DNA of 60,450 bases, filler included, from Porpidia crustulata (Eukaryota), in assembly GCA_964255105.1 (NCBI GenBank). It is 8 parts of 8 records of this genome, joined end to end, with 100 filler letters (N's around TTAATTAATTAA, not from the genome) between each part and the next. Parts side by side here need not be neighbours in the genome. Positions count along the whole stretch, not along the records: positions 30,308 to 37,773 come from CAXUWE010001315.1; 7 more parts are not named here. One strand, 5' to 3'. Made by a program: the position numbers and the translations under genes. Of the stretch, positions 3,151-56,504 are shown piece by piece (position 1 is the stretch's first letter; every line of letters starts with the position of its first letter). A model generated the notes under the pieces. That model was not told the origin of the DNA. It saw only the letters and a list, made by a program, of their open reading frames with translations, and searched no databases.

Positions 3151-3826
3151 AACTAATCCCTATGCCAGACTACCTATCTAAGGAATTAATCTCAGTTCTC
3201 ATCTGCATAGTCGCCACTACACAGAGATCACGAACCTACGAACTAAACAATCAATTTGGTGATCCTATCATTTCTACTACATTAGAATTTTCTCATCGCA
3301 TACATCTTAAATTGGATCCCGAGCCCTATGGCTGCTTTGCTGTTAGAAGGCTTACAGCCACGTACAATTCGATCAGTTGGAACCCTCACAGCAGTCCTGG
3401 CGCATTTGCTCGCTAAATCTTCCTGAGCTGGGCTTGAGTTGTTGCGGGCATAGTAAATTTCAGTGTCGCAGCGTGGAATAGTGTCCGTAGTATATGTAGC
3501 GACAGCATTCAAAGAATTGGTTTGGTTCGACTACTTCTATTGTGCATGATTGTTGATATCAAGCTACTTACCTCTGGCTACCTTGTCGGCAATTGCGTGC
3601 CCCTGATACGAATCCACGAGTTGCTTGAAGTTTTCATGGTGTCACAGCACATATAGAGACTAGACGCTATCTGGTTTTGACTGACACTGTGTCGTCCGCT
3701 ATTCCATCGATAGAGAGAAAAGAAGCCGTGGACATTATAGAAACCGTCTCCTCTCTGGCGGTACACTGATAATCCTCTTGCGCGGGTCTGTCCATCTTCG
3801 CCTTCCGAAGGAGACCGGGGCAAATC

Positions 3827-13294: not shown

Positions 13295-13716
13295 TGTTCG
13301 TAGGAAAAGATTGGTTAAATTGAAAAGATGTGACAGATCATGAAGTCAGCGTAAGAGATGCCCGTGCGTGGGAGTGTGAGATCTGATACAAGAGAATACT
13401 TCTGTCGCAAAGAAAGACAATCATTGCGAATCTTCCGATTAAAGATATATACTGGAGGAATCTAGTCCATAATTTGACTGATAAGCTGCACCGTAGACGA
13501 TTATCTTTGAATTTCATACGTAGATGGTCTCCGCTGGAACTTAGCTTGCTGTGCAGTGATAGGAGATTCTAAACTGGGTTAGACTCCAGGTTAAGCGAGC
13601 ACACACTTGGAATTTCGAGACCCGCAGGACCCATACCCACCAAGCGTAACGCCTAACTTTACTTGCAATACATCAAGCACCGCTGCGACTGCTAAGGTTC
13701 ACCAAGTCCCGCAATC

Positions 13717-15062: not shown

Positions 15063-15162
15063 NNNNNNNNNNNNNNNNNNNNNNNNNNNNNNNNNNNNNN
15101 NNNNNNTTAATTAATTAANNNNNNNNNNNNNNNNNNNNNNNNNNNNNNNNNNNNNNNNNNNN
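15063..15162. other. Artificial contig linker
   Basis: N44-TTAATTAATTAA-N44. Confidence 0.99.
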
Positions 15163-16479
15163 GTTTATTACGTTTTCGGGCAGGAAATGACCGCATACAC
15201 TGGCGCCACCGGGGGGAACGACGCGCGGGAGGCCGGTTGGCACGGGATTACAGAGGCGTAGGGATTCGGAGCATACGGCGTTGAGGAAGGGGAGGGCTTT
15301 CAGGGCGGCGAAGGTCATGTCAGAGTCGGAGGTGAATGAAGAGCGGATTTCGCGAACGAGTTTCTCGTACTCGACAGGGTTCTGGATGAGCTCGTTGGTC
15401 AAGCCGGAGAGGATGGTGGCCGTGGTCTCGCTGCCGGCGATGATGATCATTGAGAAGGTAGATTCAATTTCGCCGAGGCTCATCTTGTCGTAGTTGGTAT
15501 TGTTCTGCAGCACCGGAGTCATGAAATCCTCGCGCTTATCTTCGAGATTCATGCGCCGGTGGATCTTGTCGATGGCTTGTTTGAAATGGTCTCGCTGCAG
15601 TTTGCGGATGCTAGGAGGAAGAAGCAGCAGGAGAATGTTCTCAAAAGGCGGATAGTATCGCGTTGCTGTAGCGAATGTCATTCCTAGGTAGTGTCAAGGA
15701 TGATCAGTAGATCATGTCGGTTGGAGTTCTGAGGGAAAGGGGGCCAAGCCGGCCTACCTTTAAGGAAGAAAAAGATTGTGGACACCCAGGGATGGTATGT
15801 AGTATTCTCCAAGCAGCCAAAGGATTCCCCAAAGGCCAGGTCCCCAATCAAATCAAAGGTGAAAAAGTTGAACCATTTCACAACGTCAACCACAGGATCA
15901 CGGCCTTTCTGTTCCGAATCGTCGACCATGACCTCCAGCTTTTTCATAAGCAAGTCAATGTAAGACTGAATATGAGATTCCTGCTTCACCATGGCCTTTT
16001 CCGTAAAAGCAGGAGCCAGAAGCTTCCGCATGCGAGCATTATCGGCATCGTTTGTCGTTATAATCATACTCTCCGTCTGCCCCTCCGGCGTCTTGAAGAA
16101 CGTGGGATTCTTGGGGAAAGGCTTGGTTCCGAAAACGTCATGCCAGGCCTCCTCTTTGGCAAAGGAGAGCTCATTCGGGGCAATGCGTACAATGTCCCCA
16201 TACTTCTCGTGGAACGTCTTGACATCGGCAACAAAATTTCCCCGCAACAGCGAGATGACAAATCCTACACGATACGCGCACCAAAAGGGAGGCCCTTTGT
16301 ATCTAGCCAGAGGGTGGAAATGTAGGTTGTAAATGGCCTGGAGGACTAAGTACTGTATACGAAGTCAGCACAGCTCGAATTGATTCACGTGTCCGTGTCT
16401 CGCTTTCCCTTACCAGCAATAATCCGGCGCAAGAGAGGACTGCCCATGAAAGCAAGCCATTGGGCAAGCTGGACCACAT
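15163..16479 (-). CDS. Cytochrome P450 monooxygenase, secondary-metabolism type (Tri11/CYP65-like); C-terminus missing
   Basis: N-terminal anchor MWSSLPNGLLSWAVLSCAGLLL|YLVLQAIYNLHFHPLARYKGP; KYGDIVRIAPNELSF; FDLIGDLAFGESFGCL; I-helix AGSETTAT; ExxR (ESLR). The heme Cys lies beyond the contig end. Confidence 0.93.
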
Positions 16480-16900
16480 AGCGGCCGCCGTTGCATACAG
16501 AGTGCAAAGACGTTCAAAATATCGCGGAATCTTTCACTCAATCTTCACATTATGGCGGTAAAGGTGAGCATTGCCGCAGCACGGAGAATGATTCATGCTG
16601 CAAGGCGGCAAGAATTCGATTGTTTTGACTTTGAACGCTGAAACATCATTTGTGTAAGAGAAAATTGATTATAATGTTAAGAGTATCTAAATCTCCTGAT
16701 AGACTCTAGCATTTTCAAAAAAGCTTAGCGTCGTTCATTGATAGACAGCATCTAGGTCTCGAAAAATTACGTCGTTGGAATCAATTACCACGTTTAAAAA
16801 GTTACTAATCTAAACTAATTGGGTCAAGTGTTGTTATTTGCTAGGATCACAGCGGACAGCCTCGCATATAACCCTGAACCTGCATACAACAACGCTTAGA

Positions 16901-17749
16901 CTAAGATACATGCGATTTTGCCCGTTCTTGGGAAGCCAGACGCATGAAGATGACAGGATATAGCAGCTCGGCAAGTTCCGTTGCAACGAATAGAAAGATG
17001 GCGATAGGAGACCGGGCAAAGGGATAGTCATCAGGGTAGAAAGCGTAACGCCATTGGAAAAGTATAATCGGACATAGTGTTCCAATCCACCGGCACACCC
17101 TATTTTCCCACCACGTTATTGGTGTTGGATGGAGAAGGTGATGGGCTGAGCACTTACCAGATGGTCATTGACTGACCGCGAGTGTTTCCTCGGGATAGAA
17201 GCTGGGCAACGGAAGCCCAACTCAGAAGGACTTGACACCCAAAACCGGCCCAGAAGCAAGCTACGAAGGAATCTGCGAAGGAGAGGATGAATGCCCAGTG
17301 CATGGCGACCATGAGCACACTCCCAGCAAGGATCATTGGGCCAAGGTTTTGCGCGACCAGGGGCGCATGTTTCCATTCGTGGGGGCCGAATTTGATGGTT
17401 GCATAAACCAGTACCAAATCGATCAGAACCCATAAAATGAAGGTTATGGTCTCGGCCATGGATGGAGGATAGAAGAAGCCGTACATGATTTCCCAGCCAA
17501 GGTTTGCGCAGCTGACACGGACACACATGAGCTCCATGCGAACCTAGAACAACGAGGCTGAACTCACAGCGCAATCATAGGCATCCCGTAGGATTTGTCG
17601 CGAAAAGATTCCCGGATGTACAGGATGTACGCAATGCTCCAAAGGGAGCCCATGGTAAGAACCAGTCCATCCTGGACCCACAGAAAATGCAATGGTGGTT
17701 TGTTGACGGCATCGATTGGACTGAGGGGAAGATGGAACTGGAAACCCAT
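16901..17749 (-). CDS. Pyr4/PaxB-family integral membrane terpene cyclase, 2 introns
   Basis: Spliced ~245 aa multi-TM protein with W..AY, RDKSYGMPMIAL|CANLGWE, RGNTRGQSMTIW|VCRWIGT, all hallmarks of the family. Confidence 0.93.
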
Positions 17750-18449
17750 ATCGGTCTTCGGTGACATCTCAGGCAAAGGCTGTAGGAGTGAAACAGGCAC
17801 GTCGGTACTTGGGGCGTCTAGAAGGAAAAATCGAATACTAAGAGACCGTCATGCGGATAGATAGCAACTTCTCGAGGAAATGGAAGCCAGTGGGATGGCG
17901 ACATTTTCATCTCGTGCAGACAGGAGGCGTACCGCTACACGGGGCTGAGTTCTGCGAGTGATTATGATCCAGAACGCTATAGTGCTATCTGCTTGCCTAT
18001 ATCGCCATCGACCATGCCGCAGCCACAAAGCAGTCCGTTGCTGGCATGATTATCATACCGGCACTGGACGGAAGCTGTTGCTGACCGCACATTCTTGGCA
18101 TGGCCCTAATATCGAGTACAGTTAGACACCGTCGTGAGTGGTTCACCCTACCACCCTACGTGGCAACACACTAAACGTCAGACTTGTAGTCCCTAGGTAC
18201 TCCTGCGCCGCAGCCGCTGACTTCACACTTCTCGGGCCGGATCGGGTGGGGTGACGATCTGGGGTAGAAAACTTCAGACTCTCGCAAGAATCCTTGCGGT
18301 AGAGAGGTCGCCGGGTAAAAGACTTTGCATAGCGCTGGTGTGCAAAACCAGAACTGTACTGTAGTCCCTCTAACAGAACGCAATCCAGTCGATCTATGAA
18401 CACAACGTAATAGGCGAGAATACCCATGGATGATTGAAAGCTCAGACGG

Positions 18450-19424
18450 CTATAACCTTCTCAAATACTCTCCAAGCAAGCTCAAAAATTCGCCCCCTCC
18501 CACCAGCAGCGCGCCGTACTTGAACCACCACCAGCACGACGAAGGATTTCCAACGTCCACTGCCGCCACCATCTGAAAAAGTAGTACCGCTGTCCCAACG
18601 ACGCCAGTGTAAAACGCTGGCCCAGCACTTATCATCGCTCCGGTCAAGACAAGGAATCCCATTTGGATCAGTGACATGACAAAGAGAAACGGCTTGATGT
18701 GGTTCTTGTGTCGGATCGCCATGGACATGATCCCCGCCTGCATGTCATCCTCAATATCTTGAAATGCGTAGATTGTATCGTATGTTATCGTCCAAAACAC
18801 ATACGACAATGATAGCGCTAGCAGTCCCATGGTCGGTGGCGAAAGGCCCAGCTCTAGCGGAAATACATTCATCATGATACATCCAACAAGCGTGCCCCAG
18901 GAGAAAGTGAATCCGAGGACGATTTGAGCATAGCTAGTGATCCGTTTTGCAAAGGGGTAAAAGGTTCCCATGGCGATCAGTGGAGGTATGTAAGGCAGGC
19001 ATTGTGTGGAATTTCGGACCAAGAGGGCAAACAACATCAGATACTGGTTCGCAGTAAAGATATATGCGGTAGTCGGCGACAAGGCACCGCGAGCCATCGG
19101 ACGATTGCGGCATCGAGCCACTTTGCGGTCTAATTCTCGATCGACAATGTCATTCCAGGTGCAGCCGACACTTCGAAGAACGAAGGCCACGGCGAAAAGT
19201 TCAACATTCGCGAAGAACATCTGACTTGGAGCCGGGATTGGATTCGAAAGACAGGCAGCAAACAAGCTTCCGAACAGTAAAGGAAAATAAGTGTACATGA
19301 TTCCTGCTGGCTTGTGAACCCGCATGAGTTCGGCATAAGGAATCCATGCGGCTGGGAGGTAAGATAGAAAGCCTGTAGATGGCGAAGTGTATGGAGGAAA
19401 GGTAGGCAACTTTGCTGAAGACAT
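18450..19424 (-). CDS. UbiA-family aromatic polyprenyltransferase (meroterpenoid type, YanG/AusN/Pyr6-like)
   Basis: YAELMRVHKPAG; Asp-rich motifs NDIVDRELDRKVARCRNRP and YDTIYAFQDIEDD; YPFAKR; no mitochondrial presequence, unlike housekeeping COQ2. Confidence 0.93.
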   Translation of the reverse strand: MSSAKLPTFPPYTSPSTGFLSYLPAAWIPYAELMRVHKPAGIMYTYFPLLFGSLFAACLSNPIPAPSQMFFANVELFAVAFVLRSVGCTWNDIVDRELDRKVARCRNRPMARGALSPTTAYIFTANQYLMLFALLVRNSTQCLPYIPPLIAMGTFYPFAKRITSYAQIVLGFTFSWGTLVGCIMMNVFPLELGLSPPTMGLLALSLSYVFWTITYDTIYAFQDIEDDMQAGIMSMAIRHKNHIKPFLFVMSLIQMGFLVLTGAMISAGPAFYTGVVGTAVLLFQMVAAVDVGNPSSCWWWFKYGALLVGGGEFLSLLGEYLRRL

Positions 19425-20692
19425 GATGTTACGAGGTGATGCTCAGACGAGAAACATTGAGTTGCACCTGTCTCTGAAGACGTAGCCAAGCCAAGATTTC
19501 AAACAATACCCCACGTAAGAGCTAGAAGACTGGAAGAGAGCTGAAAGGGAGCATAGCGTGCCTATCATATGATATCACAGTTATGGGGCTCTGCTCTGTC
19601 CGGCATTCCACCGATGTCCAGCGCATCAGGAAGGTGTCGGACAGTGTGTAATAGTACTAGTCGTCTCACATAGTACCGGCGTCGGGTATGAGCAGGCTGA
19701 TAAGTCATGGGGAGATATGCCGGGCTGCGAATTGACTTTCTGCACATTTAGCATGAAACGAGGATGATGAGGGATTGACGAGACTTCTAGAATCAGTCTG
19801 TCGGTGAAGATTAGGTCGATAGGGATTCATGGCGTAATGGGCAGCTAGGGTAAGCACGTAAGGTAGACTGGTAGACTGAGCGTTGGATCAAGAAAGCGGT
19901 GCCCCTGTGACTCTACGGCACTTCTGCATCAATAGCGTATAGTAAGGCCCGCCATGCGTCGTCGGAAAACAAAGGATTGACATCCTGCCCTCTTAGTCGT
20001 AAATTATGATTCTCGCGTTATGAATAACCCGAAAGGTGGGGAGGGGGAGAGTCAGCGATGTAGAGACGGAAGTTTTCACAACTGCCTCTCTCCACTTCCC
20101 AAGGCACTCTCTGGCCTCAACAGTATTATCGCGATAGCCGATAGCAATCCCAAGCAGCAGTCAATTGTAGTATCCGAGGAAATGACCTAGATACAGATTA
20201 CAAAAGCTGAGGTGCAGCTGAAAGAAGGTCGTTCTTGATGGGGCACAGCAAGCAGCCAGTCAGCAAGTAGACAGTCTTGGCTACCTAAGTTCTCGGAGCA
20301 ATCTGCTTAATCGGTAACTTTATTGGTTGAGACTTTGTTGGCCCCATGAGATCGTCCAAACGAAAGCCGACGGCAGTGAGCGTACCTTTCCCAGATGACT
20401 GCATACCTTGTGGTAGTTCGATGCTGTGCCACCTGGTTTCACACACTTCTTGCCCATACACCAACTCTGAATTTCAATTGCTCTTGAATAGAGGCAGTGC
20501 AGCGTTTTGGCGGTCATGACTGTACTCAAGTCAGAGGCTAAGCAAGCCTCAAACTCCATCTATCTCGTCTCAGAGTCTAGATAACCTTTACATATACTCG
20601 TGGCTTCCATGTCCTCAATTGTCTTTCTTTCATCCACTAGATTTCGAATTCGTTGATATTTCACCGCATATTACTGCATCAGGGTTTTCGCT

Positions 20693-26425: not shown

Positions 26426-29400
26426 ATGCTGCTTGTGCACCAGGTCGGAAGCGTCAGGATCGGTGAAGTTGTGCGGTACGTTCATATATATATAATTTCC
26501 GAGCTATGCTTATTAAATATAGCTATACTATAACATACTCGCCATCTGAAGATCCCATCCTTCCAACTCCAGGGGAGCTTTGCGTGAGGATCAGGAACAC
26601 ATCTGCGATACCGCTAAGGGCGGCTTATCTCCACGGACCGTACACCTTGTATGCGGCGTGCTATCCTTCTACGTTCAATCCAAACCAGGAAGATGAGGCG
26701 CCTTCGCATGCTGGTTCTCCAACATTCGAGCCCAATCTCAAAGCCGGTGGAAGCTGGCAAAGTCGACTTACTGTCCCAGAAAATATTCGAGAAAGAGTGG
26801 GCAAAGCGAACTTAAGAAGGACGACTGATGGTAAAGTTCCGAGCTTCACTTGGATCATCGAAGTCTCCTCCCAGGTCATATTCTCTACATCTGCGACAGT
26901 CCACTACGAGTTATTGGTCGGGAGGGATGAGAAATCCATTGAGCTAGGCTTCTCGGGTTCAGCGTTACAAGCAAACGCAGCGCCAGGTCATTTGCAGGAT
27001 CATAACAAAGGGAAGAGAAGTAAGGATGACCGTACCACTGCGCAGCGCAAGGGAGTCCTCTCGAAAGCTGTGGACTTAAAGGTTGATGACACAGAGAGTC
27101 TTTGGAGTAAACCCATATTGCCGGGCTGGGATGATGAAGGAAAGCATAGAGGTAAGAGGCGCGAAAGGCTAAACCCCGGGCACGGCGAAGCGTATTCTTC
27201 GCCCGTAAGCAGAGATGGAACGACACTGGAGAGCAATCAAACAAGCAAGGAGTCGGAGGAAAAGAAGACCAAAAAGATCCATCTCGTAGTCCTAACACAC
27301 GGGCTCCACAGCAACCTAGGTGCAGATATGCTATATCTGAAGGAGAGCATTGACGCAGCTGCAAAACAAGCTCGGGTGGATGCCAGAAGACGAAAACGCG
27401 TGCTGAAAAATCGTGGCTCAGGGCACAACGGCCGAAGTAGAGAGCAGTCCATACGAGATGTCAAAGATACAAGCGATGGTGGAACGTCGACGGCACCTTT
27501 ATCAGGCGGTCAGGACGAGCTAGACCCAGACAATGAGGATGATTCTGAAGCCGAGGAGGTCGTTGTCAGAGGCTTCTCCGGAAATGCTGTGAGAACAGAG
27601 AAGGGCATACAATATCTTGGGAAGCGTCTCGCTAAATATGTACTTTCAATGACCTACCCGGACCAGCCTTTTCTACCCGTTAAGAAGTCGGTCAAAAAAA
27701 AGCTTTCCCAAGCTTTCACAAACGATCACGCCTCTGGCTTAGAGCGTGCCCCGGCGTCTCATGATCACAGCAGTATCCATCGTGCCCCAATGAAAACCCA
27801 CCACCTCGCATACCGAATCACGAGTATAAGTTTCATTGCTCACTCTCTAGGAGGTTTGACTCAAACATATGCAGTTGCATATATCCACAAGCACTCTCCA
27901 CAGTTCTTTCGACTCATACGACCCATCAACTTTGTCGCAATGGCTTCCCCATTTCTTGGTCTTAGTAATGAGAATCCCTTATATGTTAAATTTGCCCTTG
28001 ATTTTGGGCTCGTTGGCAGGACTGGTCAAGATCTTGGGTTGACCTGGAGAGGTTCGACTATGGTACGAAGCGGTTGGGGTGCCATGATAGGTGGAATAGG
28101 TTCTGAAGCTCAGAGAGCTCACCGACGGCCGGATCCAGGGGCAAAGCCATTATTACGCATTTTACCAACTGGTCCAGCCCATCAAGTTCTGAAATTATTC
28201 CGCAACAGAACGGTATATTCGAACGTGGTTAATGATGGGATTGTACCATTACGAACATCTTGCCTTCTTTTCCTAGACTGGGGAGGACTAGGGCGTGTTG
28301 AGAAAGCGAGGCGTGAGAATGGCCTTGTCGGTACAGTAGCTGGATGGGGCTGGGCCGAGTTGACAGGAGCAAACTCATCTTCACATACTCATGCTAGGCG
28401 AGATTACGAGTCAGATTCTCCTATTGACGAGAGTGGCGAAGAAGCGAGAGGTAGATCTCCGTCGGGAAAACGGCAAGCCGTCGTGCCCCAGCCTGCGGAT
28501 AATGCAACAGAAGACGATTCGGCTACAGCAAGTCAGCAGGAGCCAGAAGGACACCAATATCTTGCTGGGAATCGCTTTGAAGATGAAAGAGAAGGCTCGT
28601 CCAGGGTTCAGTCACCTTCACAGCCATCACCGGCTTTGATTGGCTTCTTCGATTTTCTACGTCCAAATCAACCAAAAAGCCATCAGCATTCACCCAGGCA
28701 AAGAAAGATCTACAATAGAAGTCAGACCACAAAAAGCGAACTGGGTGAGGGGGCAAGCCAGTCATCCGTGAGCACAGACGGTATAACTTCACCAAGTCGT
28801 AATGTTGTAGCAGGCGACGCAGCCCCTGACAATCCGGAGGATGTCTTCGCCCCTCCAAAAACCACATTCTTCGAGTCTGCAGGGGACATCCTTAACCCAC
28901 CATTACCTTCAGAAGATTTCATCATCAATCCAGTCAATCGGCCACGGACCATTTTTCATGATCGTGTATACCATCCAGACGATATCCCACCTCCCCCTCC
29001 AAAAAAACGAATGAGTCTACGAAGGTCTTCCTCTAGCGATGCAGGAACCGGCGCCTCAATGTCCAACGCAAGTTATGCTCGCCAAATCAATAGCAATCAG
29101 CCAGATACTAGCGGTATGAAGGTCGAAGAGAAGATTGCGCGCGCCTACCATAACGAACTCTCATGGCGGAAAGTTCTCGTCCGCCTTGAACCAGACGCTC
29201 ACAACAATATCATCGTCCGCCGCATGTTCTCAAACGCTTATGGTTGGCCAGTTATTAAACATCTAGTTGATACGCACTTCGCCGACACCTATGCAGCAAC
29301 CACAGCCGACGAGCAAGAACCGAATGAAGATCGCGCGAAACCCATGCAAGAGCCCGTAGGCGAACATGGTGAGGAATTGAAACCTGATCCCGGAAAGCAT

Positions 29401-30207: not shown

Positions 30208-30307
30208 NNNNNNNNNNNNNNNNNNNNNNNNNNNNNNNNNNNNNNNNNNNNTTAATTAATTAANNNNNNNNNNNNNNNNNNNNNNNNNNNNNNNNNNNNN
30301 NNNNNNN
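30208..30307. other. Artificial contig linker
   Basis: N44-TTAATTAATTAA-N44. Confidence 0.99.
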
Positions 30308-31307
30308 ATTCCCTCCCGATCCCTCCTCTCCGCATCTACCGCCCCCTCCGACACCTCGTCCAACACAAACTTACCCATCAGCCCGTTCCGCCACCTTTGG
30401 ATCATCCACAGCGCTGCCGCCTCCTCATCGGGCGTGCCACCTTTTTGCAGCCGCCCCGTCGCCAACGCCAGCGCGGCGAGAAGCTCCATGATATCATTTG
30501 TCGGCGGGGAGTATTCCGAGTACAGGGACGGGTCGTGCAGATTCAAATGATAAAGGAGGTAATCCGCCAGCATCGTCGGCGCGATAATCGTATCCTTGAC
30601 GCTCCCGCACAGCGCAAGCTTGAGCATTGCCTGAGCGTCCGGCACGTACGGCACAGATACCCCCGGCGTGTCGACCAGATACACGCCCTCGCCGTGCTCG
30701 GCGCCCTCGATGATCTTGACCGTGGTGCCGATCTTGCGGGTGACGCCGGGCTGGGCGCCCGTAGACGCGGCTTTGGGCTTGCAAACGCCGAGGTTGCGCA
30801 GGGCGTTGAGGAGGGAGGATTTGCCGACGTTGGGCATGCCGACGATCATCATGCAGGAGCCAGTGAGGGCGTTGCGGGCGCGGGCGTGCGAGTGGGCGAA
30901 GTTGAGGACTTTGCGGACTGAGGAGCGGTCGCGGTGGTTCGAGAAGAGGGTGGGGGAGGGGTGGTGCCAAGTTTGGATGAGGGCTTCTCTCTATGCGCGG
31001 GGCCGTTTAGTAGTACTCTTTCTCTTATAGGTGATCTTGAACGTACAGCTCTATCTTCACGCTTGCCCTCGCTGCCCAGGTCTTGCTTCGTGTAGACGAT
31101 CAGTCTCTCGCGGCCTGATAGATTCTCTTCGAATAATGGATTGCGAGAGGTGAGAGGGACTCGGTAGTCGCGACATTCAATCACGAGGTCTATGTATGTG
31201 AGCATTGTCTTCATCTTTGCGAGTCCAGTGCGGTGATGGCCTAGGAAATATGACCGAGGAAGCGATTCGAGGGTCGGAAACACCTGACGAGGAAGGAAAG
31301 ACGCCAT
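30308..31307 (-). CDS. MTG1: Mitochondrial ribosome-associated GTPase 1 (RbgA/YlqF family); 3' end truncated
   Basis: DLVIECRDYRVPLTSRNP, YTKQDL, VGMPNVGKSS, PGVT and DTPG in circularly permuted order; one intron at ~30992-31046. Confidence 0.92.
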
Positions 31308-33592
31308 TGAGGCCACTGCCGCGGAGACTCATGTTGGCAAATTCCGTATAGTTAACAGCATGTCCGAAGGATGGATGTGATATGAGAATCCTGAGGCTCA
31401 GGCTTTTCTTGTGGTTTATGGATCTATTTGGGCGGCGAAGCATCCAAGCACGCCGAGGTCGAGAAATTCTAATACTAAACTATAAAGAGCTTAGTGCCCC
31501 CTAGCTAGGTATTACACCAAGTTTGCTTGCCGTACACTCTCATGACTCCCACGACTCTCGATCTCTCATCCGTACACCCTCTTTCTAATCGGAGATGATA
31601 GGAAATTAATCAAATGCACACGCTCAATGTACAGGTCACGAAATCTTTCGAGCATTCTTGATGAAAGGAGTCATTTCAAAAGAGATTTTCAGACAAACGA
31701 GGCCGAAAAGCTCTGTTTTAGACACGGCTCAATTCTCTTCACTCATTACAATGAAAACGCACTATTCAGAATTGTAGAGTCATTTAAAGGCCTTAGGCGG
31801 TTTGTTTTATGAACTTCTGACAATTCTCATTTTGTTGCTCATCTTCTCCATATTTTCTTCCTTTTCTAATCTTCTCTCTTTTCTCGCCCTGGCTTTCGCA
31901 TTTGCTGATCTTGTTCATTCGCCGCTGCTTCTGTCTCTTCGTCTGCGATGTGACGTGAAAATTTGATGGAGGATAGGGTGCTAACCCTACCACTAAGCTT
32001 ACTAGGGAGGTGATGTATGAGCAGGAGATAAGGGACGTGCGAGTACGCAAAGGTGGTGTGTCGTTATATGCGCTCATTTCATTTTCAGTTAAATCTAGTC
32101 CCATCCTAGAGGGTGAGCAATAACGCTTTAACCTGGGCTTGAGGTGAACCTTGGGTGAGCCCTCAAGGAGCGCTCCCTGAGCAAATCCCTGAGCTACAGA
32201 TGGAGGGAGCCTGAGCAGGCTAAAATTGCCTATCGAGTTTTCATCGCCGGTTCCGGCTACTCTGGGCCTGGCTGTTCCCTAACGTTCCTGCCTGCGTGAT
32301 TGGTCCACATCTTCCAACTTTCAAGTCTCTTCTATCTACTTCATTCAGTAGATCAGCTCCCTATCGCCAAACTGATTTCTTGGACGTTTAGCAATCATTC
32401 ATATTAATGATCTCTTCATCCCGTTAGAGCAGTTCAGGACATCATCAGCGGAAAACCTAAACAGATAGGCCGTCATCTTGGCCCATGAGAGAGACTTTTT
32501 AGAACTTTCACGACCACCAACAGTTCCTTGGTTCTATGTGCAATGGTGAATCCAGACTGGCGAAATTGTTCTACATCACTCAGATTAATGTATAATGACT
32601 GCATTGCGTTTGACGCTTTCTATCAATTTCTACTATTTATCTACCGTCTAACTCACACTGGCGACCCTGATGACCTATGATACACCATACGAGAAATTTT
32701 CCCATTCGCCCGCCGGCTTGAAAAGCTGGAGTGCCATTCTCTGCGCTATATTTCCCTGATTCGGCGTGGGACGGCAATGTATGAAGTAGACCGCGACTGC
32801 AGCGTTTGCTTTACTGGCCGGCATAGGAAGAACGGCCCGCACTCCTGTCATGGATTCAACTGAGGCTGTGGGAGTGTGATAAAATTTAGCTACAAAGGAA
32901 GAAGTGTCGGTGCATCAAAGCAGTGTGCAAGTGCCACCGGCCCTCAATGAAGATTTTGCGGCTTAGCTCCCGCAGAGCCTCAAGAAGAGGGGGCTGAGGT
33001 AAATCCATGACAGTCAGGGAGGTCCAGATCTCGCTTTTGGGTCAGGAAGCCAGGAGTGCAGTGATATTAGAACGTGCCGGCGCACACCACCTCATCACCG
33101 AATTCCCGGTGAGGCTTCCCATTCAGCCTCTATCACAAGGCGGGAAACTGAACGGCGAATCATAAATGTATATGATTGAATACGGTTGCACACTTCCTAT
33201 CTAGACCAACTATTACGTATTAGACACACCCATAAAGCAAGTGTTCTCAGTGATATTGTTTAGTTCGGCATGACACGAGAACCTACAACATCATTGGCGA
33301 ATTAGTCATTCACCCACTCGCAACACAATCACAAACGGTGTTGCATTATTATTAGCACAAAGTCATTGTTGCAACCAGGAACGTTGGCGATCTCCGCCCC
33401 ATAGGTCTGAAGGCGTTAGCAGATATTTTCTAGTCCTTCTCCTTTTTACCCTCTTGATAGCCTCCTAGCTGTAACATCATCAACGTCGATGCCCATCAAT
33501 CCATACCTGGTATATCAGCAGCCATCTGCCTTCTTACAACGATGTAAGAGCAAAGGGAAAAAGGGTGGGATTTTGGTAATAGCCAAAAAATT

Positions 33593-33713
33593 TGAACCCT
33601 GTCAGATTTGAACTGGCAACCTTTCGATCTGGAGTCGCTGTGATATATTAACAACCGCACATACGTAAAGAAAGGGGCAGCCCTACAACGCGCTACCGTT
33701 GCGCCAAAGGTCC
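33593..33713 (-). tRNA. tRNA-Trp(CCA) interrupted by a 49-nt GT-AG intron-like insertion at position 28/29
   Basis: Exon 1 33713-33687 plus exon 2 33637-33593 gives GGACCTT TG GCGC AACGGTA GCGC G TT^CGA CTCCAGA TCGAA AGGTT GCCAG TTCAAAT CTGAC AGGGTTC A (72 nt, full cloverleaf, one C-A mismatch in the T stem). A T6 Pol III terminator follows at 33585-33590. Confidence 0.88.
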
Positions 33714-35599
33714 AGAGATAAATAAAAACTGCTTATATCATATATAATTTGCCTAAACTAGCCTGAGCATAAACGTTCCCACCCCTCAACGGACCACTCA
33801 AACCAAAATGGCAGAACCCTACCCTTAGACCAGGTGGTCCGACAAGAGGTGCGGTCTGATGAGGGGTGTAAACAAGTATCGTAAAAGAAAGAAGAAAGAA
33901 ACAGAAAGCAGACGGTCGAGGGATCTGACATCCACGAATTGATTTTGACAATGAACTCGCGCCTGTGTTTTGTCTTCATTTTCAACATTGTGTCGTAATC
34001 GTCAAGAAACAATTAAAAGTTTCTAGGACAATCGAACCACATTCTTGTAACACCAGGTACTATCCATAACGTGGGGACCAAACCTATCCACAACATGGGG
34101 GACCAACCCGTAACACCATGAATGGATTCACCGGGCTAATGAGCTCAGACGCCTACAACTTCGCATCAAACTGGTCATATCTGTTCAGAGTAATTCATAC
34201 TAAGTTGAGCCCTTTCCAGAGCAGCAATGCTATAGTGATCACATTACCACGGACTACACCAAGAGGCAGTGGAAATAGTCACGCAGGAGCCATTGTGAAT
34301 ATGGAAAACATGACAGCGTACTCACTCTGGAAGACACTACGAAGAATAATTTCATAATTGTTTTGCTTGAGTCTCAATTAAACGGGACCGAAGTTTATAT
34401 TTGGAAAAATCTTTGTTTTACAGTACATCCGGCAGAATCAAAAGGGCACATTCGTCTTCGTTACGTCTCAGTGGAGTATGGGAGACAGCCATCTCAGGAG
34501 AGGATGTATTTTCTTGTGGGTGCTCTATCTTCAGATTCTCGCTCTCTGTTGCTAACATGTGATCTAGCATAAAATATGATATTGATCTACGTGATGGGGC
34601 TGGCATGCCTTGTTTGGTTGCGAGCGGAGGTTTCTGAGAATATGGTTACCGTCCCCATTCCCCGTCTCGTGAAAACGCAAGAGCTAGACATGCTGAACTA
34701 TTTAGCTGTGGGAGCAAGAGACTGGCTTCGATTGGACCAAGAAAACATTAAATCCGGCACATCGAAGGAAAATGCTAAGTATAGTGAATCTACGAAAATT
34801 ACAAAAGGGAGACCAGAGTCTTTCATACGGCGTCAATTTGCCACGGCACGGTGTTGTGCGCCTACCTCCTGGTGTATTGATCTCATGAAACCGCTTGTGA
34901 ATAGAGCCAGTAGGCTATGAAAATATACAGCTCCGTAAAAGCTTCACGTCGACCAGTCGCTGCTTAACAGAGACATTAAGTAATGAATGCTACATTTTAT
35001 TACCTAGCAAGATGCGTAATCCGAATACAACTTGCTACACATATCAATCTCTCACTACGAATATATCCCTGGCGCGAATTTCGGTCACCGCTGTTGTTTA
35101 GAATGCCGCTTCAATAAACAAATTCAACAAGATCCTGCATTACCTACTTTCTTCTAAATCCCCTCAAGGAACTTCATATTGCTCTTTAAGAGAGTGACAT
35201 TTTCTGTTGTACTCAACTCAACTCATCCCTACCTCGATCACCAGTATCCTACGTTTGACTCGCTATCTGCTCATTCTCTGATCAGCATTAGCCGATCCCA
35301 CGGACTTGGAAAAATCACAAGTATAGATAGAATCCATTCACGCCATTGCAAGGATTAGGGTTAGCAAGTTAGGTCTCAAAGTCGGGACTCGGCACGATGA
35401 CACCTTAACCAGGCCAATGAGCGCCCGCCAAAACGGCCCAACTACGACATCACTGCAAGACCTTTCTGTTCATGATTTAATCTGTCTAGATAATCAATAT
35501 CCTCAATCTCATCAGACTATCATCACAAACATGAACACCTTTAGGAAACAACGAACCAAGCTTACCTGACCTGCACAGCTGTCAGACCTCTTTGAGAGC

Positions 35600-37663
35600 A
35601 TGAAACTCTCCTACGCTCTGCGACCCTGTCGTCTCCTGCGGCAAGACCTTCAGAATCTCTCTCATCGTTATATCTCTGACTGGAAAACCTTCAATCAGCT
35701 CGTGTTGGCCAGTGCTGTTTATGTGTTTTTCACTAATTTGCTACCTGGAATCACGTTCGCCAGTGATCTGTACGTGCTAACTGGGAAGCAATGGGGGACT
35801 ATCGAGGTGGTGTTTAGCACGGGGCTATGTGGGGTTATCTTTGCTCTGTATGTCTAAGTTTGATATATGCTTACAACCTGGTCTCTGTCTTTCGCTTCGA
35901 TGTGCGCTCATGATGTGAGATCTCTTGGATCCTGCAGATTGGGTGTTGTGATTGTAGCTTCAAAAAGTACCAAGTGTCTGTGCATTTGACAGCCGTTGTC
36001 CTCCTGCATCCTCCAGGACTGTTCACTTATAATGTGCATATTACACCAAGTGCGTTTCTAAGAAGTATTCTAAACTTCTGCATTTTTAGTCTTTTGGCGT
36101 CTTATTCTCTAAGGGATTCCAGGGAATACCGCTCAAGAGCGTCATCTTACTGTATTTACAGATTTTCTATCCAACCTTTGACAATTCTTGGCGTGACCGG
36201 GCCTTTCTCCGTCCTGGCCGAGAATATCTATTCTTTATGCATCGGATCTTTTAATGTAAGTACTCACTCAATCAAAATCTTTTGCTCATGGTGGTTTTCA
36301 TATTGTGGCGTAGATACCATTCCTACCCTTCATGGCCTGGTCATTGATCCACGCTGGATGGATGCACTATATTCTTGCCATCGTCAATGCCCATGACTGG
36401 ACCATGCGATATGTCACAACATTCTCTACCGAGATTTTTTCTCTCCTGAATAGCATCATCTACTTTCACAAAGCCGTTCAGGAGCTTCAGCGAGCACATG
36501 GTGATTTATCCTTTGCAGCCTTTCTATACGCCATCATCGGTGCGATCGGAACCATGCTTGTTGCCATATCCCTCTCCACTGCTGAGAGTTGGAAGCCCCT
36601 TTTTCATCGCTACGTCCGTATGGGTCTTGCAGAGTATGCGGCGGCAATAAGTATCATCATCTTCATTGGAATGCCTCATATTGGAGAATTGGCCTCGCTA
36701 GACAAGTCAGTGTTGCCGGTCAGCTCCCATTTCAAACCCTCAAGTCCGGATCGATCTGTATTCTTTGTTCAATTCTGGCATCTATCTGTTGGCTGGATCT
36801 TCGCTGCTATTGTCCCGGGTTTAATCATTACCATACTATTCTTCTTCGACCACGAAGTTAGCAGCATCATTTGCACTATTGATCGATATGGTACAAAGAA
36901 GCCCGGCGGATTTGCATGGGATATTGTACTTCTGGGCACGACCACCGCAATCTGTGGCATACTGGGTATCCCCCCAGCGAACGGACTTTTACCTCAAGCG
37001 CCGCTACACTCGGAAAGTTTGTTACATACCGAAAAGGAAGATTTCCGATATGTGGAGAACGGTGAAGAGAAAATCGAGAGTCGGGATATCAAACGAGTCT
37101 ATGAGCAGCGATGGAGCGCCTTCCTGCACGCTGGAGCAATTTTGGTCTTCATCAGTCCACCATTTCAAGTCATCTTGGGACTGACGCCAACAAGCGTCTT
37201 AGCTGGCCTGTTTCTGTTCATGGGAGAGCAGAGTCTCTCCGTAAAGTAAGATAAATCTACGTCACCAAATGTTGGCATGCTAATAAGATTTAGTCCTATC
37301 CTCTACCGCACTTTCTACCTCCTCACCCCTCCATCCGAATTACCCAAGCTACCAAAAGCCGAGGGGACTTACCTAGGCGTCCATATCTACACTGTAGTAC
37401 AAATCATAGTCACCGTCATCATCTTCATCGTCACGCTAACGAAAGGAGCACCGGCATTTCCAGTCATCATCATCGCGTTGGTCCCAATCCGGCTGTTGCT
37501 AATGCCTAAATTGTGGAAGCGGGAAACTTTACGATTCGTCGATGCCTGGGCCTGCAGAGCTGGCACGCCCGAGGATGATGAGGATCTTCTCAACGACAGC
37601 GAAAAGCACGCTGCATCTCAAGATACCTCGCCGGCCCCTCAGGAAAGCCTAATGCCAGCTTGA
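35600..37663 (+). CDS. HCO3-/borate transporter family (SLC4/BOR1-like), 3 introns
   Basis: FTNLLPGITFA; |FSIQPLTILGVTGP; LFFFDHEVSS; GIPPANGLLPQAPLHSESL; VYEQRWS; VLAGLFLFMG. Confidence 0.9.
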
Positions 37664-40698: not shown

Positions 40699-43537
40699 CT
40701 AGATGTTGACGCCAGTCCCTTTGCCTTCCGTTTGAGCCTTTGAAAATTGATATACCAAACCTAGAACTCCTGGTCCTCTATCCTGACTAATACCTTGCAT
40801 GTCATCTTCGCCGTCGTCATCCCGAGTGCCAGCGCGAGTAGTCTTCCAAGATTCGCCCAAATTACTATCAGTCACAGCTCCTTCACTGCCGTCTCCGACA
40901 GATCGTTGCGTGTTCTCCAGCGTCAACTCATTTTCATCCTCGACTGGGTCGACGAGGGGTTTACGCGATGCTCGCAAGCGGGAGTGGCTAGGCCTATGAG
41001 GTGTCTTACTCCCGAATCGCGACGGTTGATGGTGGGGGTCCAGCAGAATCGACGCCACGGGTGATAGCTGGCCTCCGGTGGGCGTGAACCTTGGAGTTGG
41101 ATGCGTCGAACGAGGTCTTGGTCCTTGACCAGCTAATACTGATCGGCTGGGTCCTCGATATTGACGGTCAAGCCTGTCTAGTCGGCTGCTGCCAGGACCG
41201 TTCAACTCGGCAGCGAGGGTAGGCGACATCAGTCCCGGAAATGCTGGAGGAGGATGGAAATTGCGCTTCACTGAATGATGCAAATACGGTGCACCAGATC
41301 GCTGGTTTGTAACATAATTGTCAATAAAGCCATAGTAAGACGCGAGCATTTTGCCATCCTTTGAAGAGTAGTATTCCTCACGCAAATCCTGGGCGGCGGC
41401 CTCATCTTGTCTGGCAATATTATTGCTTTCCTTTTTAAAGTCGAAAACAGCGAAAGAGCACACGTATCCCAAGCCATCTACATGAAGAGTAAACTCGCGG
41501 AAAAAGTCTACAAGCCGGTCACTGCTTTTGGGGAGACTGAACCAGAGGATGAACGGGGTGAAGAACATGCTGAGCATTTCTTCAAGAAATATGACGACCT
41601 TCATTTTGTAGAGCTCCGCAAATTCCGTTCGTACTTCGTTGCTATGCAATCGTCCGCGCCAATGATTTGGGGAATAGTGTGTATATTCGGTTACGTTGTT
41701 GAGGGCATATCCGGGGTCGAAGACCAGATTCTCTTCTGGAACCGCTCCTCTGGCCACCGCCCACACCGTTCCAAATACTCCAAGATAGAACAAGACTGTC
41801 CGATCCTGCGTAATCTCGAACCCTAGGAATAGTTCAGGGTCTATTACAGAGGCCAAAGCTAAGACCGATACAACGGCGCCAGTGATAAAGGCAACAAAAC
41901 GTGAGATCTGAATCGTTTTGTCCTTGGGAAATTGGTCCATGTAACGCGAAGCAAATGGATATGACATATTGATGCGACGTTGGAACAGGTGCCACAACTC
42001 ATTGAACTCTCGGAATTTCCATTCAGCGAGAGGCGTGTATTGACGGGATCCAATTTGAGACGGATTCTTTTGGTATTCGTTAAAATAGCGAAAGAAATAG
42101 AGCATTGCAAAGTAAATTATGATGAAAGGAGCACATAAGACGTTCATAAATCCAGCAAACAAGAAACGTCTCCGCAGACCTTCACTGAGAGCCCGCCGGT
42201 GGGTGTCTTTGAGGAACAACGGTCGAACTTGGCCCTGCTCATTGAAGACGTAGTCAAGAATACATAGGCTCAGGTTCCACTCGAGCGTCTTTGAGAAGAG
42301 TTGCTTGTTTCGAAGGAATGGAATCGGTAGCGTCAGATCTAGGATGTCCTTGTTGATCAGGGCTATCAGATAGTTGTCTCGACGCATTAATCGATTTGCG
42401 ATATCGTGAGCGTCCATGCGTTGTTTCGATTGACTTCCCATGAATCGAAGATGCCGCTCTGTGACCCCTGCAGCCGTTGCTGGGTTCGAATCTCGTAACA
42501 ACATGAGACGTTTGACAATCTCTTGCCACGAGACTGTTTGCATATCGGTATCGGAAACTTCGAGAAGATAGTAGTAGAAATTGTGCATATTCTGTAGCCG
42601 ACGAATATCTAGGATATATTGAAATAATTTACAGATCCACAGGAATGCAAATAGCCAAATCAATAGATTGGCCGAGCCAGACATATTTTTGGTACATTGC
42701 GGAATCAGGATAGCGGACATAGTCTGACTCGTTCGGACCTTTGAGTAGTCGATGCAAGAGGTAAGAAATGTACTGAACCCTACAACAAACGCCAGGGTGC
42801 TATAGAAAAGTCAGTGACCATGTTGATACTCTGTCGCGGAGAGCTCACAGAAGGTTCAACGTTCTGCTCAGGAGAATACACCAGATTCCGTTTGCAAGGA
42901 AGTAATCATAGACATCTTTAAGAAAATTATCAAGGTTTTCCACGTTCGCCCATCTCCACATCGCCATCTCTTTGGGATCCAATGTTGCGGCAGGTCGACC
43001 TCGGTGAGTAGGCATCCTGGCTTGCGGTCGAACAGAAGCCGCATCTTGGTGAAGACGTTGTTGCTTCTGGGTGGCCTGCCACTTGGCCCTTGTTTCCCTC
43101 GAGGCAGGTCCCACTATAGGTGGCGGTCTAGTGTCTCGCTGTTGGTGGGCAATCGGCCCTAATAGAGCGTCCTGATCGCCTTCAATCAGCAATGATTGAG
43201 GAACCTCGTCATCTATCTCATCTGCCTCATCTCGCCTCGACGACTTCGTGTAATGCGTCTGTCGTCGACCAGCTCTCCTTGAGGGCTCCCTGCTCTTGCC
43301 TCCTAGTAGTCCTGGTGCTGCTTCGGTAGCGGGACTGGCAGCAGCATCAAAAAGCCCCTCCTCAAGCTCATGGTCCTGAAATCGCCTGCCCAGATTTTCT
43401 TCGTCGAGCATCATGCCTGCGCGTTCTTCGACGTCAGACTGATCCGAAGGTTCATCGTGCTGACGAAGCGTTTCATAGACAGATGGAGTTCCCAAGGCAG
43501 GAGGTAGGAATCTGGAAAGAATATTTGACGCCATCAT
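40699..43537 (-). CDS. ATG9: Autophagy-related protein 9 (lipid scramblase)
   Basis: [79 protein letters not shown]; one intron at ~42801-42848. Confidence 0.96.
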
Positions 43538-43920: not shown

Positions 43921-45338
43921 ATGAACGGAAATATCGACCACATTGTGGATTTGCCAGATGAACTTGATGGGAGATTGACTGCATCAGCGATTTCCCAGAG
44001 ATCTAATGTTCTCTCTAATAAAGTCACATCTATCCTTTCTGCATCATATGCAGACAATGAGATCAGGGATGCGCTACAAACACTAGATGGGAGAGAAGTT
44101 GAGAACACTGCCGAATTTAGACGAAACCTGCGTCTTGATGTGCAGAAAGAGGTCATTGAACGCAATGGTGCAATTGTGCGAGATTTTGGTCATGTAGCGG
44201 AGGTTCGTTACAAAGCGCTGTGTTGACAGCTTTGCGCTTTGGCTGAAAAGTCAACAGCAACTGAAACGTATAGGAAATACTATTACTAGCTTGAATAAAT
44301 GCTGTCAAGAAATGCGCCAGCATGTCGCTGCCGCTCACCAAGATAATGCGCCAGTCATTGAAGAAGCCTCGACGCTGCTCCAGCAAAAGCGGGAGATGGA
44401 AAGTAAAAAGCAATTACTCGATGCTTTCAACAAACACTTCATCATGTCGGAAGAAGAGTTGAGGGTCCTGACAGCCACATCAGAGAATGTGAACGACAAG
44501 TTCTTTGCTGCTTTGAAGAGAGTCAAGCAGATTTACACTGACTGCCAGATTCTGCTTGGAAGCGAAAATCAGAGACTTGGCCTTGAACTCATGGATGAGA
44601 GTTCGAGGAACTTGAATAGCGGGTTCCAAAAATTGTACAGATGGATTCAACGTGAATTCAAATCTTTGAACCTAGAGAACCCGCAGATCAGCTCCATCAT
44701 CCGTCGAGCACTACGAGCACTCGCAGAGCGCCCTACGCTATTTGAAAGCTGTCTCAATTTCTTCGCTGACGCCCGAGAGCAGGTTTTGACGGAGGCCTTT
44801 TACTCAGCGTTGACAGGCTCATCCAACGATGCCGGGCAAGACCCACTAACAAAGCCTATCGAGTTCAGCGCGCATGATCCTCTGCGGTATGTTGGAGATA
44901 TGCTTGCCTGGACTCATTCTGCAACGGTATCGGAACGCGAAGCGCTGGAGAGTCTTTTTGTCTCTGACGGCGACGAAATCGCCAAAGGAATCCAAGCCGG
45001 AAGAATCAGCGAACCCTGGTCTGGTTTCGACGGCGAGGTTTTTGACGGACGGAAAGCGCTTGATGAGCTGGTCAATCGAAACTTGGCTGGTGTAGCACGA
45101 GCAATACGACAGAGAATTGAGCAAGTGATTCAAAGTCACGACGACCAGGTATTGACCTACAAAGTCGCGAATCTATTGGAATTCTACTGCGTGATGTTCC
45201 ATAGGTTATTAGGAGACGGGTCAAGTGTCTTGCAGACTCTTTCGAACCTCAAAGGCTTCGCTCTCAGCCATTTCCGAACCATAACGAGAGACCACATTGA
45301 ATCCATCCAAGCCGATCTCACCCAACCTCCACCCGATC
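43921..45338 (+). CDS. COG6: Conserved oligomeric Golgi complex subunit 6; 3' truncated, start approximate
   Basis: [30 protein letters not shown]...[32 protein letters not shown]. Confidence 0.93.
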
Positions 45339-55146: not shown

Positions 55147-56504
55147 ATGGCTCCTGTTGAGGTCAAAGTCGACTACTACGCCGTCCTTGAGGTATCAAAC
55201 ACTGCTACTCTTGAGGTTATGACCAAGAACTATCGACGATTGGCCATGATTCACCACCCTGATAAGAATCTGACAGGCAACTCAACAGCTATATTCCAGC
55301 TTGTAGGACCTACTAATGTTCTTAAATCAATTCTTTCAGAAGACAGATACTGACTTGTATTGACCAAGCTTCAAAATGCTTATGACACAATTGGTGACCC
55401 CCAGGGACGCCGCGTGTACGACATCAGATGGCCAGCCATCAGAGATAGTCTGAGGGCGCAGCAGGCTTCGGATTGGCGTCAAGCTGATGCCGTAGAGACA
55501 GAGAAGAGGAGGGCGACCGAAGAAAAAGCTAAAACCCAAAAGGGAAACGAAGCTCGGCAGGAATGCCTTCGATGTCTCTACTTATCCAAGTCCCGATACG
55601 AAAGCGAAACCTGCGAGCTCCGACGCGCGGTAAGAAAGCTCGCTGCAGACTTGAAGCGTCTCCAGGACCGGGACGATAAGGACGTGAGAAAGGAGAAGGA
55701 GCAGAAGAGTTGGTGGACATATATTGCTTCACCCTTCTCCGCCAAGGTGGAAGAGACCGACGAGCAGAAGCAAGCGCGGGAAACCGCCCGTCTTCATCGA
55801 CTCGCAAGTAAAACTATCAAAGGCATCGAACTTCGTGGAAGTGAGGCCAAGCTTCGGAGGCAGCAAGATGCGCTGCAAGACGTCGACAGTAAGATTGCCG
55901 CCGAGAAGAAGAATGCAGAAGATGAGGCACGGGCACAAGCTCGGCAAAGAGAATCAAGGATGGACCAAGAAGCAAGAAATAGAGCGCAGCAGGAGATGCG
56001 TGAAAGCAGGGCTAAGGTCCAGAAGGAACAGGCCGAACGTGCCGCAAAAGCAGCCCGCGACGCTCAAGCAGCCGGTGAGACACAAGAGGCCCGAGAGCGT
56101 GCTTCAAGGGAGCTTCAAGGGAGAGAGAGACGGCAAGACGTAGGATGCAAGAAAAGGAGCGAGCGGAAGCGGAAGAGGTTGCCCGACAGGCAGAAAAGTC
56201 GCGGAACAAATATTCTCGAACGGCAACGCCTTCGTATGGCTCTCATGGCACACCTAACCATACGGAGAGCACGTGCCTGCACAACAAATTCTGGCCGAAG
56301 ATTTCAGGGAGCCACGTTTGTAGCCAATGCAGCCATTTCTTACGAACATTTGCCTTACAATGCCCTGGATGCATGATGATTGCCTGTGCGAGTTGCAGGC
56401 AGAAGCTGAGAGACGAGAAACCGAGGAGATTCAATGATAGCAGACGATCTAATTTTCAAGGATATTCTGGTGCTGATGAGTGGTTCCATGACGATTTTGA
56501 CTGA
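55147..56504 (+). pseudogene. DnaJ-domain / coiled-coil / C-terminal Cys-rich protein, frameshifted by an 11-bp tandem duplication
   Basis: J domain DYYAVLEV...YRRLAMIHHPDKN...FQL|LQNAYDTIGDP; coiled coil; CLH..W..CSQC...LQCPGC...ACASC lies in another frame; gcttcaaggga is duplicated at 56101-56122. Confidence 0.75.

Follow-up and report, generated by a model that had tools for sequence, protein, structure and literature searches.

A tRNA-Trp gene of Porpidia crustulata split in its anticodon stem by an intron of probable spliceosomal type, and related split genes in metagenomes

Can a nuclear tRNA gene be interrupted by an intron of the kind that the spliceosome removes from mRNA? In many fungi, for example Saccharomyces cerevisiae, tRNA-Trp genes carry a canonical intron at position 37/38, 1 nucleotide (nt) 3′ of the anticodon, which is cut by the Sen endonuclease. 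The question is raised by a tRNA-Trp locus on the minus strand of a 60,450-nt stretch of DNA from Porpidia crustulata (GCA_964255105.1), made up of eight parts of the assembly joined by filler letters and hereafter called the window. An earlier note, made from the sequence of this stretch, had proposed that the gene is split by a spliceosomal (GT-AG) intron inside the anticodon stem. The explanation favoured here is that the locus is a functioning nuclear gene for tRNA-Trp(CCA), from a fungus of ascomycete type, with a 49-nt U2-type (GT-AG) intron. The proposal draws support from the conservation of splice signals among related genes, the occurrence of additional introns, the absence of the bulge-helix-bulge (BHB) fold, covariation in the tRNA stems, and terminator-like T runs.

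The anatomy of the locus is given in Table 1. Excision of 33686-33638 from the minus-strand sequence 33713-33593 produced a 72-nt tRNA-Trp(CCA), discriminator A73 included, which ARAGORN recognized as a cloverleaf; the claim that removal of a 49-nt insert restores this structure was thus reproduced by in-silico splicing. The spliced tRNA displayed a 5-bp anticodon stem, a CTCCAGA loop, and a single T-stem mismatch, C50:A64. The ends of the intron are fixed and allow no slide, because exon 1 ends with T whereas the intron ends with G, and the intron starts with G whereas exon 2 starts with C. The non-sliding GT...CAG boundaries described in the earlier note were accordingly recovered from the sequence, as was the branch-like GTTAAT about 10 nt before the AG, with exactly 10 nt following its second A. 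The longest T run counted in the insert was 3, in agreement with the statement that no run of four or more T's is present, and the A-box-like stretch, the B-box-like stretch, and the T6 terminator were all found at the locus. The two boxes were assigned by the consensus sequences of these elements. G1:C72 and A73, identity features of eukaryotic tRNA-Trp, are present as well.

As a chance control, every GT..AG stretch of 40-70 nt in the window was excised (n = 13,024) and ARAGORN was run on each product. A junction-spanning tRNA was obtained from 1/13,024 excisions, and this was the tRNA-Trp locus itself. Seven control dinucleotide pairs gave 0, 0, 0, 0, 0, 2, and 0 junction-spanning tRNAs, both calls being mis-spliced versions of the same locus. 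Among all 47-54-mers of the window, GT..AG ends occurred in 0.36% and GT..YAG ends in 0.16%, while GT..YAG ends combined with a YTRA box 8-13 nt from the end occurred in 0.015%. Without excision, no tRNA was reported anywhere in the window by ARAGORN in default mode, and no Rfam match to a tRNA was obtained at gathering scores or at E-values up to 10. The unspliced tRNA-Trp gene, on which ARAGORN was silent by default, was called as a false tRNA-Ile(AAT) when the intron option was used. A 97-nt tRNA-Ser(TGA) reported at 13615-13711 in the pseudogene mode of ARAGORN was rejected as a chance call, having no proper T loop and poor stems.

The insert was compared with the mRNA introns of the window (Table 1), which were placed by Pfam matches continuing across open reading frame (ORF) fragments and by frame-preserving GT..AG joins. 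In this small sample (~8), for which GT..AG was assumed in the placement and some joins have alternatives, the introns measured 46-74 nt; their donors fit GTRNGN, their boxes are of the CTRAY type, and their acceptors are YAG. The tRNA intron (49 nt, GTAGGG, TTAAT, CAG) falls within this class, and its unusual donor type recurs as GTAGGC and GTAGGA. The length of 49 nt also lies inside the range of the placed introns, so that the likeness in length pointed out before holds.

Metagenomes were searched with a pattern of 11 exon bases before and 15 exon bases after a gap of 35-65 nt, in which neither GT nor AG was demanded. Thirteen loci matched, with the insert at the same 28/29 site as in the window. 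Every one of these inserts (13/13) starts with GT and ends with TAG or CAG. All 14 genes (the 13 loci and the window) were spliced in silico to a 72-nt tRNA-Trp(CCA) recognized by ARAGORN. In their unspliced form, the intron option of ARAGORN called Trp for L004 only, gave nothing for six other loci, and misnamed L003, L005, L007, L008, L011, L013, and the window gene as Pyl(CTA), Ile(AAT), Ser(AGA or GCT), or Stop(TTA). The expectation that standard scanners would miss or miscall such genes was therefore borne out by ARAGORN and Rfam alike. In prokaryote genomes, a looser Trp pattern gave 6 matches, 0/6 of which was a split Trp gene; five were ordinary bacterial tRNA-Gly or tRNA-Thr genes and one was not a tRNA.

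By flank similarity, the lineages were grouped as the window, L008, L003, L001 with L010, L004, L012, and group B (L002, L005, L006, L007, L009, L011, and L013), whose members are 94-100% alike. L001, L010, L003, and L008, together called group A, share flank patches and the upstream box with the window. Among the products encoded next to the loci are HeLo, Med18, an FMN-dehydrogenase split between two reading frames, and an ABC transporter, indicating that the locus contigs are eukaryotic and fungal-looking; in the window, Zn2Cys6 domains and domains of fungal-specific transcription factors are encoded. The contigs of nine loci come from Antarctic cryptoendolithic rock metagenomes (PMC7171226; this and the other papers given by PMC number are cited for those parts of their text that were available). 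A title in the reference list of that paper describes such rock fungal communities as dominated by lecanoromycetes and dothideomycetes. The tie of these loci to lichen fungi is a lead only. Most simply, the 28/29 intron represents a single ancestral gain; with one old gain the 14 copies are not independent trials, and the informative point is what was kept.

The splice signals were kept. Over the whole set, 22/22 introns (16 distinct sequences, 47-54 nt) read GT..YAG, with T runs of at most 4. A branch box was found 9-12 nt before the 3′ end in 16/16 distinct introns, 14 of them YTRAY and the others CTAAA (10 nt remaining after the branch A) and CTAAG (11 nt). G at +5 was present in all 14 introns at 28/29, the donors being GTAAGT, GTAAGA, GTGAGC, GTTAGT, and GTAGGG. 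In the alignment of the 28/29 intron (8 lineage representatives), 8/56 columns were invariant, namely G1, T2, G5, the branch TAA, and the terminal AG, while identity in the intron interior between lineages was 0.39-0.59, against shuffle means of 0.44-0.55. Invariant splice signals around a randomised interior are the pattern expected of an intron that would be recognized through spliceosomal signals. The earlier note had stated in advance that orthologous inserts which did not conserve the GT, AG, and branch signals would speak against its proposal; these signals were retained in 13/13 loci.

Some of the genes carry a second insert that can be read as GT..AG. In the seven group B loci it is located in the variable loop, at 45/46, and in L012 in the D loop (18/19), between two conserved Gs; both kinds sit at G/GT proto-splice-like sites (the slash marks the junction). 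These 8 introns start with GTAAAT after an exonic G. In the 45/46 intron of group B, 19/50 columns vary and 31/50 are invariant, compared with 46/51 invariant columns for the 28/29 intron in the same genomes. The changes in the 45/46 intron keep the consensus, with CTGAT, CTAAT, or TTGAT as branch and TAG or CAG as acceptor. The D-loop intron of L012 starts with GT directly after the exon, and thus the A-box reading is kept in the DNA.

The tRNA body and its surroundings were also compared. Compensatory changes were detected by RNAalifold in 4 acceptor pairs and 3 T-stem pairs among five single-intron precursors, and positions 8-15, positions 44-48, and the T loop were identical in 14/14 genes, though unfixed by the search pattern. 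As judged from its sequence, the tRNA-Trp body is under selection. A run of five or more T's (T5+) starts no more than 12 nt past the discriminator in 14/14 genes, against 1.7% of the 25-nt windows of the stretch. Upstream of L001, L003, L008, and L010 lies a TAAATATAT..GATAAG box similar to that of the window, and other AT-rich boxes are present upstream of group B and L012; overall, the boxes are found ~20-45 nt upstream. We infer that the TATA-like box acts as a promoter element. In the RNAalifold model, a GGTCGC shared by the introns of L001, L003, and L008 can pair with the 3′ splice junction G/CGACT (alignment A1, columns 52-57 with 82-87), with no covariation.

Runs X1, X2, and X3, where X1 contains the window and may be its source and X2 and X3 are from other organisms of the same study, were compared as contigs of unrecorded kind at 80% likeness. 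An intronless Trp gene with 7 differing letters over 73 nt and its own T run after it was found on a 14,277-nt contig of X2, and another on a 713-nt contig of X3. Both skip exactly 33638-33686, indicating that the predicted junction is genuine tRNA-Trp sequence and that taxa differ in whether they carry the intron. In X1, only one contig matched the tRNA exons at 80% likeness, and the lack of a second match is no proof of absence. Separately, an element at 33774-33868 (minus), 60-155 nt upstream of the tRNA, is multi-copy in X1. Six other X1 contigs match 33774-33809 or 33835-33868 at <95% likeness and have no match to the tRNA exons. Telomere-repeat-like TTAGGG/CCCTAA occurs in the loose ends of those six contigs and in the window (..CTAAGGGTAGGGTT..).

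Transcription by Pol III, intron removal by the spliceosome, and the sequence of maturation may be pictured as follows. RNA polymerase III (Pol III) would transcribe the gene from the internal A and B boxes, aided by the TATA-like box, and would end at T6. The precursor could not form the anticodon stem and would therefore offer no substrate to the tRNA splicing endonuclease. The U1 small nuclear ribonucleoprotein would pair with the GUAGGG donor, and branch-point factors and U2 would bind the UGUUAAU box. The spliceosome would then remove a lariat, using the CAG acceptor, and join U28 and C29 by an ordinary phosphodiester bond. After splicing the cloverleaf would fold, and its ends would be matured in the usual way, through RNase P, RNase Z, and CCA addition. 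At least five further fungal lineages would have inherited this 28/29 intron, and in some of them another intron of this type would have arisen, either in the D loop or in the variable loop.

[quoted passage not shown] Several observations weigh against this reading. The donor GTAGGG and branch TTAAT of the window are weaker than the GTAAGT and CTAAT of most lineages. The T-stem mismatch C50:A64 of the window is common to L008, and in L001 and L010 the normally G:C pair 53:61 is replaced by T53:T61; such mismatches could reflect relaxed constraint. The D-loop and variable-loop introns allow a joint 1-nt slide of their boundaries, so that GT..AG is forced only at 28/29. The 14 genes are not 14 independent events, group B being 7 near-identical loci. 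The search pattern needs exact exon flanks, and it left other anticodon-stem lineages and intronless genes unsampled. There is no direct precedent among tRNAs for spliceosomal removal of an intron from an uncapped Pol III transcript this short, in which the 5′ exon has 27 nt (17 in L012).

The same spliceosomal intron might instead lie in a transcript of RNA polymerase II (Pol II), made from its own TATA-like unit or as part of a longer non-coding transcript, from which RNase P and RNase Z would release the tRNA after co-transcriptional splicing. As is generally known, recruitment of the spliceosome is normally coupled to Pol II (PMC8527467). The TATA-like box ~20-40 nt upstream would suit such a unit, and intron gains at three sites would be easier if the transcript routinely met the spliceosome. 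The T5+ runs within 12 nt of the 3′ end, however, are predicted by Pol III termination in all 14 genes and would be needless for Pol II; in addition, the A-box and B-box sequences are intact, and no long ORF or gene is evident on the same strand around the locus. Fission yeast and plants also have TATA boxes in front of tRNA genes that Pol III transcribes, which counts against Pol II transcription. The lack of intron T runs above 4 points the same way on its face, but it is useless for separating Pol III from Pol II, because the few mRNA introns of the window also have T runs of at most 4. Transcription by Pol II is considered unlikely. Another view is that the locus is a tRNA-Trp pseudogene or relic, whose insert is never removed, or removed without consequence, while intact Trp-CCA genes serve the cell. 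Non-canonical inserts in eukaryotic tRNA genes are usually taken as pseudogenes (PMC4090602), the C50:A64 mismatch would fit decay, and intronless Trp genes exist in other organisms (X2 and X3). Yet decay would not spare exactly G1, T2, G5, the branch TAA, and the final AG amid a randomised insert; compensatory changes in the stems would be unexpected, and so would the terminator kept in 14/14 genes and the identity of positions 8-15, 44-48, and the T loop throughout. We regard a pseudogene as improbable.

A non-canonical tRNA intron could also be excised without the spliceosome, either by the endonuclease and ligase of tRNA splicing or along some other protein-only pathway. Excision by the endonuclease is the only documented pathway for nuclear tRNA introns (PMC10275265, PMC13149111), and archaea, nucleomorphs, and Cyanidioschyzon merolae have introns in the anticodon stem, in the D arm, and at 45/46, as well as genes with several introns (PMC4090602). 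Introns of that kind have no conserved GT, branch box, or YAG, whereas these are the sole invariant intron positions here. The earlier note had named a BHB fold as evidence against a spliceosomal intron; the canonical 3-4-3 form was found in 0/17 introns of 11 distinct precursors, relaxed BHB forms not having been searched exhaustively. The central helix had 0-1/4 pairs in most cases and 2/4 in the D-loop intron of L012, and the best case, L004, combined 3/4 pairs in the central helix with 0/3 in the outer helix. No compensatory pair touched the intron in the RNAalifold model. The introns also lie at 28/29, 18/19 (D loop), and 45/46, and none at 37/38. The ruler mechanism of the eukaryotic endonuclease is tied to 37/38, and would not apply to introns at other positions. 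Cleavage by the endonuclease is considered very improbable. Two further candidates were rejected. A self-splicing group I or group II intron requires a ribozyme core of at least ~200 nt, compared with introns of 47-54 nt, and no Rfam match was found at the locus at E-values up to 10. For a transposon insertion, no target-site duplication was found at the boundaries, and introns from different lineages show no relationship in sequence.

How would a spliceosomal intron in a tRNA gene stand among known systems? No description of one was found in open-access papers or bioRxiv preprints, a search by which an account in a subscription journal could be missed. The statement in the earlier note that no well-described case was known agrees with this search and with the reviews. 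In the available part of a 2014 review, eukaryotic non-canonical tRNA introns are confined to nucleomorphs and C. merolae, other insertions being supposed pseudogenes (PMC4090602). A 2014 review of permuted tRNA genes mentions spliceosomal introns, in the text available, only for protein-coding genes of C. merolae (PMC3978253). tRNA splicing is set against the spliceosome in a 2023 review (PMC10275265) and called spliceosome-independent in one of 2026 (PMC13149111); both describe it as relying on RNA structure and not on GT-AG signals. The intron types are considered unrelated to each other in a study of a nematode that has no tRNA introns (PMC12530127).

The closest parallels to the window intron are found in other non-coding genes. 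Hosts of spliceosomal introns listed in the consulted part of PMC5855946 are U6, U2, U5, and U1 small nuclear RNA (snRNA) genes and rRNA genes, with tRNA not among them. mRNA-type introns occur in U6 of Schizosaccharomyces pombe and other yeasts and in U1, U2, and U5 of Rhodotorula hasegawae (Tani and Ohshima 1989, 1991; Takahashi et al. 1993, 1996, cited in PMC5855946). Moreover, a 57-nt spliceosomal intron from the ribosomal DNA (rDNA) of the lichen Cladonia grayi was spliced by yeast from RNA polymerase I (Pol I) transcripts (PMC8527467). The snRNA and rRNA cases provide a precedent for the spliceosome acting on transcripts other than those of Pol II. Like the snRNA introns, the window intron is a short GT-AG intron with a branch box inside a small, structured non-coding RNA gene; the U6 gene is transcribed by Pol III, snRNA hosts work only after spliceosomal removal of the intron, and reverse splicing is the proposed origin (PMC5855946). 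Unlike them, tRNA-Trp can carry two introns, at three alternative sites. Because the tRNA does not belong to the spliceosome, its gain of an intron cannot be put down to proximity to the catalytic centre. With the rDNA introns of lichen ascomycetes the window intron shares short length and signals overlapping those of mRNA introns, and it would share spliceosomal type and a host gene not transcribed by Pol II (PMC8527467; Bhattacharya et al. 2000 as cited there); it differs from them in being hosted by a 72-nt Pol III-type tRNA rather than a Pol I rRNA.

Among tRNA introns, those of C. merolae, of cryptophyte and chlorarachniophyte nucleomorphs, and of Crenarchaeota resemble the present ones in lying outside 37/38, in the anticodon stem, in the D arm, or at 45/46 (PMC4090602, PMC3978253). 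There, too, up to two or three introns occur per gene, and standard finders miss the genes. According to the same partial texts, however, those introns are BHB-defined or measure 3-24 nt, and they lack GT, branch box, and AG, the opposite of the window intron. Compared with the canonical fungal tRNA-Trp gene, the same tRNA species bears an intron, but the genes studied here have no insert at 37/38.

Other features of the window were noted apart from the tRNA gene. ORF fragments with cytochrome P450, Pyr4-like transmembrane terpene cyclase, and UbiA prenyltransferase domains lie at 15118-19442 (minus), a region that looks like part of a meroterpenoid-type biosynthetic cluster. A single open frame with SAM, HMG-box, and Zn2Cys6 domains is located at 3773-4825 (plus), with Fungal_trans fragments next to it at 5034-7230. 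Between ATG9 and COG6, at 43978-44054 (minus), a weak match to the C/D-box small nucleolar RNA snoR44_J54 was obtained (26.5 bits, below the gathering score of 48; E = 1); its ends resemble C and D boxes. The ORF of an MMR_HSR1-type GTPase has at its lower end a run of N (~30256-30300), read as an assembly gap, which appears as X in translations.

Table 1. Positions of the tRNA-Trp gene parts, its predicted control elements and intron signals, and the mRNA introns placed in the window.
Feature	Position	Strand	Length	Remarks
tRNA-Trp exon 1	33687..33713	minus	27 nt	acceptor 5′ strand, D arm, position 26, anticodon-stem 27-28; ARAGORN cloverleaf after in-silico excision
A-box-like stretch TGGCGCAACGG	33706-33696	minus		within tRNA-Trp exon 1
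mRNA-type intron	33638..33686	minus	49 nt	between tRNA positions 28 and 29
Intron donor GTAGGG	33686-33681	minus		
Intron branch box GTTAAT	33652-33647	minus		putative branch A = 33648
Intron acceptor CAG	33640-33638	minus		intron end reads CACAG
tRNA-Trp exon 2	33593..33637	minus	45 nt	anticodon-stem 29-31, loop, stem 3′ strand, variable loop, T arm, acceptor 3′ strand; ARAGORN cloverleaf after in-silico excision
Anticodon CCA	33632-33630	minus		in exon 2 loop
B-box-like GTTCAAATC	33613-33605	minus		T arm of exon 2
Discriminator A73	33593	minus		
T6 run, Pol III-type terminator	33585..33590	minus		starts 2 nt past discriminator
AT-rich TATA-like box AAATTATATATGATATAAG	33732..33750	minus		~-37 to -19 from tRNA 5′ end
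ATG9 intron	42800-42848	minus	49 nt	GTGAGC..CTGAC..TAG
GTPase intron	30991-31046	minus	56 nt	GTACGT..CTAAC..TAG
HCO3-transporter-like intron	36256-36313	plus	58 nt	
HCO3-transporter-like intron	37246-37293	plus	48 nt	
Transcription factor intron	5816-5861	plus	46 nt	
DUF676 intron	26476-26522	plus	47 nt	
P450 intron	15684-15757	minus	74 nt	donor GTAGGC
DnaJ intron	55303-55368	plus	66 nt	donor GTAGGA

On a wider view, about which we are evenly divided, an ascomycete clade, possibly rock-dwelling or lichen-forming, would depend on the spliceosome for its tRNA-Trp, perhaps made from a single gene, with a Pol III precursor spliced like mRNA and with repeated intron gain at three sites. If the interpretation is true, a conserved tRNA family with one or two mRNA-type introns would break the rule that tRNA splicing is spliceosome-independent, and the supply of the sole UGG-reading tRNA would be tied to spliceosome activity. 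This would be a third kind of nuclear tRNA processing. Since ARAGORN and Rfam miss the genes, affected genomes would seem to lack tRNA-Trp, and tRNA annotation would drop an essential gene in these genomes. tRNA genes would repeatedly gain spliceosomal introns, at three sites, two of them proto-splice-like G/GT, and this would be direct comparative evidence that introns are gained when reverse splicing places them in an abundant non-coding RNA that is then retro-converted. The locus would offer a natural test case of the spliceosome on a short Pol III transcript, and a system for intron gain in which the host has 72 nt, there are three insertion sites, and lineages that have each intron can be compared with lineages that lack it.

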